DNA of 64,000 nt, taken from assembly GCA_964016885.1 (NCBI GenBank), contig OZ024751.1:25358001-25422000 (forward strand), written 5' to 3'. How positions within the stretch are numbered: the first letter of the stretch is position 1; each line of letters starts with the position of its first letter. Under the pieces are notes generated by a model. It saw only the letters and a program-made list of their open reading frames with translations, was not told the origin of the DNA and did not search any database. Positions 3,872-60,340 of this stretch are shown in pieces. Position numbers and translations under genes: made by a program. The stretch is from Eledone cirrhosa. Lineage: Eukaryota.

Positions 3872-4293
3872 AATATATTAATAAATGGAAACTATATTTA
3901 TAAAACCATATTTATTTTATTATACATATTTCAAGGGCAACCAAGGCAAATTATGGTGCGCTTTCATCAGATAAAATACAGATTTGTTTTATAAATAAAT
4001 ATACCCGGAAAAAAGACAACCTTAACGGTTGGAGCTTCCTGGATAGGTTGTCTTTTTTCCGGGTATGTCAATATTTATTTATAAAACAAATCTGTATTTT
4101 ATCTGATGAAAGCGCACCATAATTTGCCTTGGTTGCCCTTGAAATATGTATAATAAAATAAATATGGTTTTATAAATATAGTTTCCATTATTTAATATAT
4201 TGTGTATTTACTTCACTAAGTGTTGAGTGCTTTATATCAGTTATAAAAATGTTTAAGCTTGTTGAATCCCAACAAATTAAATATAACCTCTGC
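3872..4293 (+). mobile_element. HHR-bearing PLE-derived element with inverted arm, between (TA)n tracts (family A)
   Basis: About 150-bp inverted arms 3872-4022 and 4045-4202; related copy at 52710-52913. Confidence 0.75.
4095..4160 (+). ncRNA. Type I hammerhead ribozyme motif (mirror copy on - strand 3913-3978)
   Basis: tattttat-CTGATGA-aag..ctt-GAAA-tatgta-TA-ataaaata; 8-bp helix I. Confidence 0.75.
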
Positions 4294-4844
4294 ATATATA
4301 TATATATATATATATATATATATATATATATATATATATATATATATATCACCGATATTCAGAGTTGACACTGCACTCAGTAGTCCCGTGGGAGCGCCTA
4401 CACGGACACACTAGAAAAGGGAGAGCAAGGATGACGGAGAATCCCTTTAGCATTTAATGGTGTTTTTTTTTGTGTTTTTTTTACTATTTTATATATATAT
4501 CAACTCGTGTGTCACTTCTCTACATTCTCTCTCTCTCTCTCTATATATATATATATATATATATATATATATATATATATATATATATATATATATATAT
4601 ATATATATATATATATATATATATATAGAGAGAGAGAGAGAGAGAGAGAGAGAGAGAGAGAGAGAGATATAATCACGCTTTCACGCCTAATTTCCATGCT
4701 TGCGTATGTTACAATTATGAAATTAGTCATTTTCTTCTGTTCTATAATTAAGAATCAATTCTTACATATCTATTCTTATTCCACCCCCACCCCCCCCGCT
4801 CAACATCACTACCACCACCACCGCTAATGACAACCGTACTTTAG

Positions 4845-4958
4845 GTGTTGGAGATCCCCACTTTACAATCGGCATCCCTGGATTAAAACGACCAGTTTGC
4901 TTTGATCTAAACGGACATGCTGACGACGTTATAAATTTGATGGCAGACGATACTGAGA
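4845..4958 (+). CDS. ITIH-like exon with GDPHF motif
   Basis: ctttag| and |gtaagt; GVGDPHFTIGIPGLKRPVCFDLNGHADDVINLMADD is the start of the ITI heavy-chain C-terminal domain. Confidence 0.9.
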
Positions 4959-6360
4959 GTAAGTAAAAATAGATGTTTTCTTCATTTCCTTTTAACCAGT
5001 AACAATAAATACCCGGAACAACTATATCTTTCGGGGAAAATCCCTCATTCTCTTAAACCCTTTCATTGCTACATTCTCAAATAGTTATGAAAATAGAGAA
5101 GAATTACGAGCTATATAATTGTCTTTCTCATTGTTAAGCCGGTGTTTGGAGTATATCTTAAAACATATTTTTTACATAAAATTACGCTAGAAGATTATTA
5201 GATTAAAACTTCCTTTTATCGTAGAACTATGGGTGGTTTAAATTCAAAACGGTTAAAACCGGAAAATATAGGAGTCAGCAGCGTAGCAGTTTTGCTAGAT
5301 TGAAACCAACGTATTTATTTATTTATTCAATTGAAATGTCCGTATAATGCTAGTAAACCATGGCAGACTAAGGGAATTGTCGAGTACTCCTTGCAGTTGG
5401 TAACCAAAACGCGTTCGTGAGACAAGTAATAAAAAATTACAAAAATAACAAAAATATACTTTTTAAATATTGAAGGCCAATGGGAAGCAGATTATACATA
5501 AGTAAACGAAAAAGAAAATAAGAAACAAGGAAAGTTTCTGTTGTTGAATGTTTTCGTAGCTTCCATGTACTCAAAGATTTTGTTTATATTTGGTAGACCT
5601 GTTATAATATATTGAACTTCCAATCTCGGTAGTCTTTTAAAAATGTGTTTCAACATGGCCTCTCTCTCTCTCAGACTGATAGTTTCTCCATTGGAACAAA
5701 TAGTGTTGATATGTGGAAAACACATACGCCACAGAAGTAGATTTTATGTAGTATCTTTACGTTGGCAATGTAGCAACCATGTGGCCCAAACCATTCCCAT
5801 AGGAAAGATACTTGAATAATCTTTCATACTGCGAAATGTAGGAGCTTAACGTTCTACAATATATAGTTTCTATATAGTTGTTTGATGTGTGAAATGCAGC
5901 GGCCACGGTGAGCTTCTGTTTATTTATTTATTTGTTTCTTTAAGTAATTTCATCGTCTTTGTAAAGCTGATGAGCCATGACAGACTTTGAGGGAGAATGT
6001 GACAGAGACAGAGAAAGCGAGAGAGAGAAAAATCTGTTAAATGTTTCTTTTAAATCTTTTTGAAAGTTCTATCAACTGGAATACCTTATTCATAGTAAAT
6101 TCTTGAAAATGTATTGTTCCTACAAACTGGTAATCTATGCTGTTGTTTTAACAGCTCAAAACAGCAGCGGAATTTAGTCCTTCATCACCAGAAAACAAAG
6201 TATACATAACAAGACCGATGTAGCATGTACAGTAATTCTTCCTGTTGCAGAAACACATTCACTAACCCCCACCATCAATAAAACAAGTTCTGCTATATTC
6301 CTTCGATCTTCATAGTGTGCGTATATTCTTTATTTTTGTTGTTATCTTCCATTGTTTCAG

Positions 6361-58334: not shown

Positions 58335-59970
58335 AACCTACAACTCTTCGGAAGAACGAGAAGTTGAATGTACGTGTTAACACTGTTCGTATCTTCAGCA
58401 ATGAAATATGTATGGGAATTGGTGTTAATAAGTGTAGAGTCGTATTGTTGAGGTGAGGTAAATTAAAGAGAAGCAAATGAATCGAGGTACCAACGGGTGA
58501 GATGATAAAGGAAATCGACGCTGAAGAAGGATATTTGTATTTAGGTGTTCTGGATTCAGATAACACCAATGACAATAAAATGTCAAAAACAATGAAAATG
58601 ATAAAATCTGAATACATAAGGCGAGTAAGGAACATACAAAAATCCCATCTAAATAGTAGAAATTCCATGAGTGCAGTAAATTCTCCAGCTGTGTATATTA
58701 TTAGGTAGACTGCAGGAATTCTGAAATGGAATGTGAACGAAAAAAAAAAAGAACTGGCTAGAAATACATGGAAATTAATGACTACCTACATTACGTTTCA
58801 TGAGAAGGATGATATTGATAGACCGTACTTAAAGAGACCTGAAGGTGGAAGATGTTTACACAGCGTGGACGAATGTGTTCAGATAGACAGGAGCTGTTTA
58901 CATAAATATGTATCTGAGAGTAACGAAGCAATGCTTAAGGCTGTATTGATGGAGGAGACAATAGACCAAGCGATGTGCAAGAAAGAAGTAGCTACAAAGA
59001 GGAAGAACAACCTGAATGAAAAAAACCCTCATAGCATCTATTTAAAGAGAACAGAATTCAGAGATTCACAGACATGGAACTGGTTAAAGAAAGTGGACCT
59101 TACGAAGGCTACAGGGGGAATGCTACTGGCTTCACTGAAGCAAGCCCTCAGAACGAAGTAGATGAAACACCATATTGACAAGGAGGAGGCTAGCCTGCTT
59201 TGTATGATCTGCGGAGTGAGAGAGGAAACTTTGGCTCATATCGTATCCGAGTGTAAACACCTAGCTCAGATTCACTATAGGGTGGAGGTATGATATCTAG
59301 GAGAGGAAATTCACTGTCATTTACGCAAACTGTAAAAATGTTCTCATACTGAGAAATGTTAAGTAAATTTATGCAAATTGAACTCATTACTTCATTCCGA
59401 CAAATGGTATGCAAATTGAAGAGAAGCAAATAAATCGAGCCAGAGTCGTTGATAGGAAACGATCAGGTGAAGGTGCTGTGACATTTTAGGATAGAAACGG
59501 ACAAACAATTAGAACACAATAAGCTTGGTCTTAAGACAAGGGAAAATATTTGTTGATTATAGATGTAGCTTGCGCCTTTGACACAAAAGTACAAGGAAAT
59601 TAACCGGTACCAGGATATAAAGTAGGGACAGAAAAGGATTTGGGACTTCCATGAGATCAAAGTCGACCTCATCGTGATAGGAGCACTAGGTACTCTCTCG
59701 AAAAGTTTCCAAAGCCGGTTAAAGAACATTAGACCAGGACCCTTTTTTGGAACACTCCAGAAGGCATGCCTCCTAAGAACAGCAAGGACCCTCCAATATG
59801 TCCTGAATATCTGAGGCTGCGGCTAATGGCTTGATGTTCATTTGGGAAAATTTTCTCGCTAAATATCATGAAAGACTGAGATATCAAAATATAATGACGA
59901 TAAAGGTGGATGATGATGATGATGATGATGATGATGATGATGATGATGATGATGATGATGATGACGATGA
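58335..59970 (+). pseudogene. Decayed R4/Dong-like (R2 group, REL endonuclease) non-LTR element, 3' half
   Basis: YLYLGV..LNSRN..DIDRPYLKRPEGGRCL..WLKK..KQALRT..C.IC..ETLAHIVSEC..IDVA.P.D..IVIGALG; many stops; (GAT)n tail at 59909-59970. Confidence 0.8.
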
Positions 59971-60136
59971 CAATAGCAAGTAAAGTAGTAGAAGAGAATA
60001 TACAAAACAAAAAAGTCAAAGACGAGTTTCAAATAACGATCTCACACACACTGATGCGCAAACAAGTGTATATATAAATATATATACTGTATATATATAT
60101 ATATATATATATATATATATATATATATATATATAT

Positions 60137-60340
60137 ATTAATATAGAAGAGCTTCTACAGGACTAGAACTGTTTCATTCGTGAGAAATCATCAGGAAGCT
60201 TCCTGAGCTTCCTGATGATTTCTCACGAATGAAACAGTTCTAGTCCTGTAGAAGCTCTTCTATATTAAAACATTTATACTCTGCTATGTATTGAGTACCT
60301 TACTTACTGTGGTTACCTCCGATTCAACCCGGAATAACTT
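60137..60340 (+). mobile_element. Family F element with inverted arm between (TA)n tracts
   Basis: Perfect inverted repeat about 60138-60200 and 60206-60268. Confidence 0.8.
60205..60257 (+). ncRNA. Complete type I hammerhead (mirror on - at 60149-60200)
   Basis: gagcttc-CTGATGA-tttctcacgaat-GAAA-cag ttctagtc ctg-TA-gaagctc; predicted cut after 60250 (GUA). Confidence 0.85.

Follow-up and report, generated by a model that had tools for sequence, protein, structure and literature searches.

Penelope-like elements (PLEs) of the Hydra clade are retrotransposons whose hammerhead ribozymes, (TA)n targeting, inverted arms and ‘tail’ have already been published (PMC8557442, PMC4209133, PMC3846280). 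In this clade one open reading frame (ORF) encodes a reverse transcriptase (RT) and a GIY-YIG endonuclease, with DKT, RW[KR] and CxCX5C motifs and no CCHH motif, and the elements are generally <3 kb (PMC8557442). PAc, a Poseidon element of Anolis carolinensis, has two internal start sites of reverse transcription, one at each boundary of the tail, and uses either target strand; the binding motif was mapped only to the first 172 nucleotides (nt) of the ORF, and the two starts were left unexplained (PMC11167929). Here we analyse a 64,000-nt stretch of the 3.0-Gb genome of Eledone cirrhosa (assembly GCA_964016885.1, contig OZ024751.1, positions 25,358,001 to 25,422,000, hereafter the window), in which families of hammerhead-bearing element ends, designated by letters below, share a short GAGTRCT box. 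This box makes up the 3′ strand of a bulged hairpin, predicted from the sequence, of the form RCUC-(variable helix)-UH bulge-GAGY-RCU, backed by compensatory changes, and full-length copies carry two such hairpins, just upstream of which the enzyme of the element probably starts to copy.

The elements described here resemble the published Hydra clade in their ORF for RT and GIY-YIG endonuclease, the hammerhead in their pseudo-long terminal repeat (pLTR), their (TA)n targets and their inverted pLTR arms; the tail is 30–40 nt there against 71–102 nt here, where the unit of family E reaches 3.5 kb (PMC8557442). Likenesses to PAc are an A/T-rich target and, in the mechanism proposed below, two starts downstream of the hammerhead that bound the tail, internal initiation and a dimer, as predicted for PAc (PMC11167929). 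Animal non-LTR retrozymes (LTR, long terminal repeat) are likewise short hammerhead units that lack coding sequence and derive from PLE pLTRs or depend on them (PMC7229834); those are tandem units, whereas most families here are 5′-truncated ends of coding elements, arranged head-to-head. No description of the hairpin or motif was found in the literature searched, figures, Repbase notes and subscription papers lying outside that search. The words ‘hairpin’ and ‘stem-loop’ are absent from the main text of PMC8557442, which does not describe the motif, and the accessible parts of PMC7229834 and of bioRxiv 10.64898/2026.07.22.740005 do not describe the hairpin.

A predicted bulged hairpin in Hydra-clade leaders

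All 12 box sites that an earlier note on this DNA had listed were found in place, and on the strand given, when the window was checked directly: GAGTGCT at 4225 and 52842 (family A), 11474 (B), 37267 (C) and 36223-36217 (-) (G); GAGTACT at 13582 (C) and at 14909, 20534 and 49347 (E); and the variants GAGTACC at 60293 (F), GAGTGCA at about 49476 (-) and GAGCACT at about 37490 (-). Further boxes lie at 11231 (-), 6847 (-), 62892 (+) and 3614 (-). The window holds 28 matches to GAGTRCT, whereas shuffled sequence gives 9.94 ± 3.16 and none of 100 shuffles reaches 28; six of the 28 matches are one GAGTACTC site read on both strands, which leaves 22 distinct sites, 12 of them within a hairpin, one being the reverse reading of the 37490 site and nine background-like. 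In an independent genome sample of 59 regions (590 kb, 1453 (TA)n tracts), GAGTGCT is the top non-microsatellite 7-mer 35–75 nt upstream of (TA)n, observed 34 times for 2.13 expected. The 50–80 nt before (TA)n hold 28 of its 87 matches, versus 5 of 87 for the reverse complement, which has no peak. Clustering of 97 box-like matches near (TA)n gave 33 clusters, which include all families of the earlier note and several more. The existence of the box and its positional enrichment are therefore borne out by window and sample alike, and the enrichment holds after de-replication of families, the masked flanks of which are not alignable: with box and bulge masked, none of 36 pairs among nine families beat all 300 shuffles, the closest approach to general homology being the upstream A-G pair (z 3.5, 2 of 300 shuffles as good).

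The elements that carry the box were traced through a Hydra-type PLE RT fragment (thumb region) at 13005..13205 (+), upstream of the family C end, which led to long open frames in the genome sample. L110, a full-length relative with an 861-aa frame, and L209, with a 784-aa frame within a 3.5-kb tandem array, both show, by eye, the motifs of an RT and, at the C terminus, of a GIY-YIG endonuclease; their homologs carry PF26215, and a Pfam scan of the L110 protein gave no match. The ends of families A, C, E, G and K all continue into PLE ORFs that are 37–56% identical to each other in amino acid sequence. The link of family F to an ORF was made by eye only, and none was found in the genome sample for families B and X. 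DKT (in place of DKG) and the CxCX5C linker are present in all four frames that cover these regions (C, E, A and G), while the N-terminal RWK region reads RWR in E and A and LWR in the C copy and has no match in the G frame. The endonuclease is without CCHH and has CxxC and CxH near the conserved E and N (by eye in P0001, P0002, P0005 and P0007), the pLTR hammerhead and (TA)n insertion are both present in the box-bearing families, and the tandem unit of family E, at 3531–3546 bp, exceeds the size tendency of the clade. On the diagnostic DKT motif, the CxCX5C linker and the lack of CCHH we assign families A, C, E, G and K to the Hydra clade. Assignment to the Neptune clade was rejected, as the CX2-5CxxC linker and CCHH are absent and the Hydra diagnostics present, and families A, C, E, G and K are not non-LTR retrozymes (non-coding tandem units without an ORF), since each of them leads into an ORF. 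Given the ORF links and diagnostics, the window elements are therefore 5′-truncated ends of related retrotransposons, and ‘otherwise unrelated ribozyme families’, as the earlier note had them, no longer describes A, C, E, G and K. As to whether they are one diverged family with general homology, the ORFs do have a common ancestry, and the non-coding ends have no general nucleotide homology: as far as the leaders of these five families can be compared, they have diverged save for hammerhead and hairpin.

The conserved motif itself is real, and what had been taken for a linear 7-nt box is better described as one strand of a covarying hairpin. A 4-mer complementary to the box lies upstream of each box and the two change together, ACTC with GAGT and GCTC with GAGC. 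This outer helix (P1) encloses another, whose sequence varies and which two unpaired bases on the 3′ side set off from it. The consensus of 75 hairpins runs from an A/U-rich lead-in (~80% A/U) through RCUC, an inner helix and loop of 6–53 nt, and the bulge, to GAGY and RCU. The bulge is UU, UC or UA in 74 of the 75, of which 57 rows from other organisms had bulge and flank letters imposed by the search pattern itself.

Hydra loci from other organisms were retrieved with an alignment of 38 proteins, 78 from metagenomes and 12 from prokaryotic assemblies, and are mostly 34–43% identical to the family E protein; most have the order hammerhead, hairpin 1, hairpin 2, ATG. De-replication merged 18 of 56 upstream regions (from metagenome and metagenome-assembled genome contigs) to leave 38, and at least one box is present in 30 of these and two in 20, against 14 of 374 ORF windows. 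Among the published consensi in the supplement of PMC8557442, inspected by eye, a plain hairpin occurs in Hydra-2_Amil, Hydra-1_Ajap (twice) and Hydra-2_Ajap; Hydra-1_Crog has hairpin variants, Hydra-1_Amil ends before the place of the hairpin and Hydra-1_Obim is ambiguous. Other matches to three 8-mers in that supplement fall in Naiad and Chlamys consensi, mostly in coding-like regions (PMC8557442). The motif thus occurs in Hydra elements of many aquatic animals; the earlier note had proposed to look for it in the PLE pLTRs of other invertebrates. No relatives were found in a viral contigs database. The contigs from prokaryotic assemblies (L313-L323) contain animal-type Hydra retrotransposons, probably as host contamination.

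Pairing is kept through the changes seen at these loci. P1 takes the forms GCTC/GAGC, ACTC/GAGT, TCTC/GAGA and GCAC/GTGC, the last two in loci from other organisms (L266 and L293; L315 and L321, respectively). When the 5′ strand was picked by its P1 complement alone, the first inner pair across a bulge of exactly 2 nt was Watson–Crick in 55 of 55 hairpins from other organisms (37 C-G, 18 U-A), compared with a mean of 30.8 and a maximum of 43 in 5000 shuffles; other bulge sizes (0, 1, 3 and 4) yield 1, 0, 8 and 20 such pairs. An ungapped alignment of 10 hairpins has 95.7% of its cells paired and both-side changes in five of seven pairs. These 10 rows are the equal-length subset of 61 hairpins, MAFFT on all 61 having left the 5′ strands unaligned; none of 500 shuffles, which ignore relatedness, reached the score, and slid pairings gave 17–50%. 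Two other accounts of the conserved letters were rejected: pairing of the box R with an upstream U, because that outer pair is lost in other organisms, and coding constraint, because the box precedes the ATG and the bases before it vary. A search of Rfam with the leader of family E found nothing up to an E value of 5, and the best 150 of 290 Rfam matches to the window were only microsatellite-driven microRNA matches and two tRNA-like ones.

That the box arose by chance, or is a passive remnant of the common ancestry of one family’s diverged copies, is an idea to which we give practically no credence. The families are indeed related via their ORFs, and 9 of the 22 window sites are background. 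This reading is refuted by the 590-kb enrichment, by conservation of the motif elsewhere at ~40% protein identity, by the pairing across the 2-nt bulge and by the compensatory changes of the 10-row alignment, and it sits badly with flanks that cannot be aligned.

Two hairpins and two copy ends

In full-length copies two hairpins stand between hammerhead and ATG. Hairpin 2 was first seen in full-length copies of C and K, directly behind the long end, and was then sought as a prediction behind the long ends of E, A, G, F and B: it is present in about 71 of 100 matches listed, of 639, in family E (counted by eye), in about 50 of 83 in family A and in 263 matches in family G, where the search pattern demanded RCTC..GAG. 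Ends that abut TA repeats are bimodal in 9 of 10 families, lying either just 5′ of a hairpin or 33–84 nt beyond the box, and family N has the long end only. TA-abutting alignment ends of six families (A, C, E, F, G and K) were placed on full-length references over the window and a further 990 kb, the row of L121 being left out because its query contained a (TA)n tract; 128 of 130 such ends fall between −1 and 14 nt ahead of the 5′ strand of either hairpin 1 or hairpin 2. Head-to-head pairs consist of one long and one short arm in 44 of 46 cases, and the stretch between the two ends forms a one-sided tail of 71–102 nt, which, with the inverted 5′-truncated arm, matches the insertion architecture of endonuclease-bearing (EN+) PLEs. 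Second copies in other organisms, counted over 17 of 20 rows (three TA self-matches of L319 were left out), end 0–6 nt before a hairpin in 12 of 17, mostly into (TA)n.

The hairpin to which the earlier note’s box belongs (hairpin 1) therefore marks the shorter end, and the supposition that the box marks an end 45–70 nt downstream had to be given up: the long end abuts hairpin 2, which is absent from the stubs. In the window the box lies 44–71 nt from the element end in families A, B, C, E, F, G and X and 79 nt in the family at 49476, and 58–114 nt from the hammerhead. No ordinary copy of family C ends 15–75 nt after box 2, the exceptions being one rearranged site and four matches from other families.

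Positions of this kind bear on the idea that the motif serves the 5′ leader as a promoter or in the control of translation, with junctions nearby only through an A/U-rich match to (TA)n. Hairpin 2 does sit 9–69 nt before the ATG, the lead-ins are A/U-rich, and pLTRs of other PLEs carry promoters (PMC3846280). The leader has many other A/U-rich stretches, however, yet almost all ends fall at the two hairpins, and a promoter box read as duplex would show no covariation over a loop of 6–53 nt; we regard this idea as very unlikely.

The junctions, which hold a fixed position relative to the hairpins, were used as a proxy for starts of complementary DNA (cDNA). The features that can be read from the sequences are the two-hairpin layout, the covariation, the junction positions, the A/U-rich lead-ins and the pairing of long with short arms, and from these we consider it probable that the Hydra PLE enzyme binds both hairpins and starts reverse transcription internally, just upstream of each. 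The hairpin would act as RNA, its bulge, GAGY helix and unpaired RCU being bound by the RT-endonuclease protein. The nicked (TA)n target would prime on the A/U-rich lead-in 5′ of the hairpin, and the two hairpins would place two priming events, one per target strand, perhaps via a protein dimer. The Penelope ‘tail’ would be the stretch between the two starts and would thereby be explained, and the marking hairpin itself would stay uncopied in the arm that it started. A broader proposal, that two bulged RNA hairpins, conserved across phyla of aquatic animals, form a portable start signal on which a dimeric, telomerase-related RT docks to prime one cDNA from each strand of a (TA)n cut, is offered tentatively, at a little under even chances. 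The suggestion of the earlier note that the box is a shared cis-signal is supported, and of the three options that it offered, an RT recognition site fits best.

Covariation alone cannot tell RNA from single-stranded DNA. The hairpin might instead work as DNA, in single-stranded cDNA or an extruded duplex, positioning the GIY-YIG endonuclease to cut just upstream while it resolves the integration intermediate, so that the junctions are cut sites and not priming sites. GAGYRCTC is nearly palindromic, as would fit a DNA site, the tail has been ascribed to endonuclease-mediated resolution (PMC8557442), and the tail of the D. virilis element was reported to be needed for endonuclease recognition (PMC11167929). 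We nevertheless judge this unlikely. The eighth box position is C in only 39 of the 75 hairpins, GTGC variants are matched by an upstream and not a downstream change, and the inner helix has G-U over A-C pairs on the sense strand by 12 to 4, an excess that leans weakly toward the hairpin acting as sense RNA; the tail boundaries of PAc, moreover, are RT starts (PMC11167929).

Identical junctions, and the loss of the marking hairpin from each arm, are also predicted if the hairpin directs RNA 3′-end formation (cleavage by a nuclease of host or element, pausing or termination) a few bases upstream and the RT starts at true 3′ ends; the conserved bulge and unpaired RCU could then serve as a nuclease site. 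This, too, seems improbable to us, as full-length transcripts must pass through both hairpins to reach the ORF and the strict pairing of long and short arms is less simply explained. In PAc the start is internal irrespective of the 3′ extension, and in vitro the hammerhead need not cleave (PMC11167929).

Several observations weigh against internal starts set by a pair of hairpins. Local folding is often weak, with a P1 pair probability of at most 0.3 in 9 of the 14 descriptor-placed hairpins of the window (family B excluded); it is at least 0.5 in 37 of 54 hairpins from other organisms. The family B hairpin deviates in its 1-nt bulge, and no clear second hairpin was seen among 16 matches of this family. 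Family F is without a GAGYRC second box, the sole candidate of 36 being an F-G chimera, and has as a substitute a bulge-less GCAC/GTGC stem in 4 of 11 matches. Five of the 17 second copies in other organisms end elsewhere than at a hairpin, and the reverse-strand control there (21 of 38) is uninformative, given the near-palindromy of GAGYRCTC. TA microhomology also blurs where the junctions lie. A Neptune-type family, described below, is also two-ended, so that two ends do not require this hairpin, and only one of the roughly nine hairpin-less hammerhead families listed has been tied to another clade. Finally, PAc belongs to another clade, Poseidon, and its starts lie inside an AC-rich stem-loop within the ORF (PMC11167929), whereas the junctions taken as starts in this study are in the leader, outside the coding sequence, and immediately 5′ of a defined covarying hairpin that is present in two copies.

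We also observed interfamily chimeras (F+G, B+N, E+C and A+E) whose joints lie at the hairpin or within it, as though copying halted or changed template at that place, at L220 (-) ~1460-1560, L221 (-) ~1130-1260, L111 (-) ~2160-2210 and L087 (-) near 8790. In L222 (-) ~1480-1760 the family F tail is repeated three times head to tail, the units being joined just inside the hairpin 2 place.

Element ends in the window and families without the hairpin

The long arm of family A has a minimal hammerhead core at 4103..4144 (+) and hairpin 1 with its box at 4210..4231 (+), with one P1 position altered, and ends in (TA)n at ~4294; its inverted short arm at 3870..3970 (-), with a hammerhead core at 3929-3970, ends in (TA)n before hairpin 1. 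A second copy has hairpin 1 at 52826..52848 (+), with P1 pair probabilities of 0.53–0.98. In family B hairpin 1 lies at 11458..11480 (+), with the 1-nt bulge and a 4-bp inner helix, so that the 2-nt-bulge descriptor does not fit, and again in an inverted arm at 11225..11247 (-), a site absent from the earlier list. Family C has a hammerhead core at 13404..13474 (+) and hairpin 1, with a long inner loop, at 13536..13588 (+); in its second copy (37221..37273 (+)) the P1 pair probability is 0.98. The three copies of family E have hairpin 1 at 14889..14915, 20514..20540 and 49327..49353, all (+), and are without the 5′ half of the hammerhead. The whole E hammerhead is a U3-A8 core variant, a form described in PMC4209133 and seen in several families (L209 1183-1250; window 55537-55568 (-); L043 7507).

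The long arm of family F carries hairpin 1 with the GAGTACC box at 60278..60299 (+) behind a hammerhead core at 60212-60234, its inverted short arm (60138..60194 (-)) contains a hammerhead core and ends before hairpin 1, and a stub not listed before has hairpin 1 at 6841..6862 (-). Family G is arranged in the same manner, with hairpin 1 at 36217..36244 (-) and a hammerhead core at 36305-36351 (-) in the long arm, and an inverted short arm at 36499..36592 (+) that has a core and ends before hairpin 1. The hairpin at 37484..37507 (-), whose GAGC box is compensated by GCTC, has a P1 probability of 0.97 and a hammerhead core at 37560-37608 (-). Hairpin 1 of family J (49470..49535 (-)), with the GAGTGCA box and a long inner loop, was placed on this strand because the hammerhead in its homolog L077 fixes the orientation. 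Two more newly listed hairpins with boxes lie in a short stub between two (TA)n tracts at 62876..62898 (+) and in a further stub at 3608..3630 (-). Tail-only stubs, which begin just ahead of hairpin 1, extend to the long end and are flanked on either side by (TA)n, occur at 62865-62937 (+) and among family A and F matches in the genome sample.

Counted by eye among the matches listed, 11 multi-copy hammerhead families of the sample have the hairpin, one has a degenerate form and about nine are without it; a strict hammerhead descriptor gave 15 hits, too few, and looser descriptors gave false positives. A box-less control is supplied by two hammerhead-bearing ends at 51289..52322 (-), with cores that start at 51316 and 52322. 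This family was traced to a full-length partner (L335-L337) which, by eye, is of Neptune type, with a CX4CxxC linker and CCHH, and which has no box in its non-coding end, so that the absence of the box from some families is, to judge from this example, real. The Neptune-type element has a different small hairpin, unrelated in sequence, behind its long junction (L327 (-) ~1520-1550, L335-L339), for which the search pattern gave 7940 matches, with repeats per site; other PLE clades may use hairpin keys of their own. L054 6699-7800 (+) is a fragment of another PLE clade with a Neptune-like linker. Further hammerhead families that are abundant and box-less lie at L050 4300-4460, window 23483-23590 and window 55400-55850, two of which have 3′ ends in common with other families.

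Elsewhere in the window, a tandem array at 44448-45435 comprises 13 copies of a 76-bp unit derived from an abundant dispersed repeat of the genome, and the two tRNA-like matches (42905-42977 and 44252-44324 (+)) lie within a duplicated block. Exon-like open frames of host genes are present at 137-817 (+), which we take to have a von Willebrand A-like look, and at 6282-6827 (+). Fragments resembling long interspersed nuclear elements (LINEs) lie at 56308-56748 (-) and 61328-61624 (-), where the start of an endonuclease and a C-terminal cysteine motif were recognized by eye.

Meaning for Penelope-like elements

RNA structures at the 3′ end recruit the RTs of non-LTR elements, as with the 3′ untranslated region of R2 and the terminal stem-loops of LINEs and short interspersed nuclear elements, and telomerase RNA has elements beside its template. 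The hairpin resembles these as a small structured RNA that would fix the RT start. In non-LTR elements these structures stand upstream of where copying starts and are themselves copied, whereas the hairpin would lie downstream of the start, is duplicated and would set two starts.

As read from the sequences, the hairpin is a structured element that is spread across a known clade of retrotransposons and sits at their insertion junctions. What directs Penelope-like elements to a template and a start site is an open question, and a hairpin of ~25 nt that is duplicated, conserved at ~40% protein identity and located at both junctions gives exact positions for mutagenesis. It is also a simple marker, with which Hydra elements can be annotated and separated from Neptune ends, and non-coding stubs assigned to their helper. 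If the proposed role is true, the hairpin would be the first RNA recognition element to be defined in any Penelope-like element, a single step would account for the tail and the inverted arms alike, and any RNA might be addressed to TA repeats for insertion. The RTs of Penelope elements and of telomerase are sister groups, and a defined RNA element beside the template would therefore bear on the origin of internal template use.

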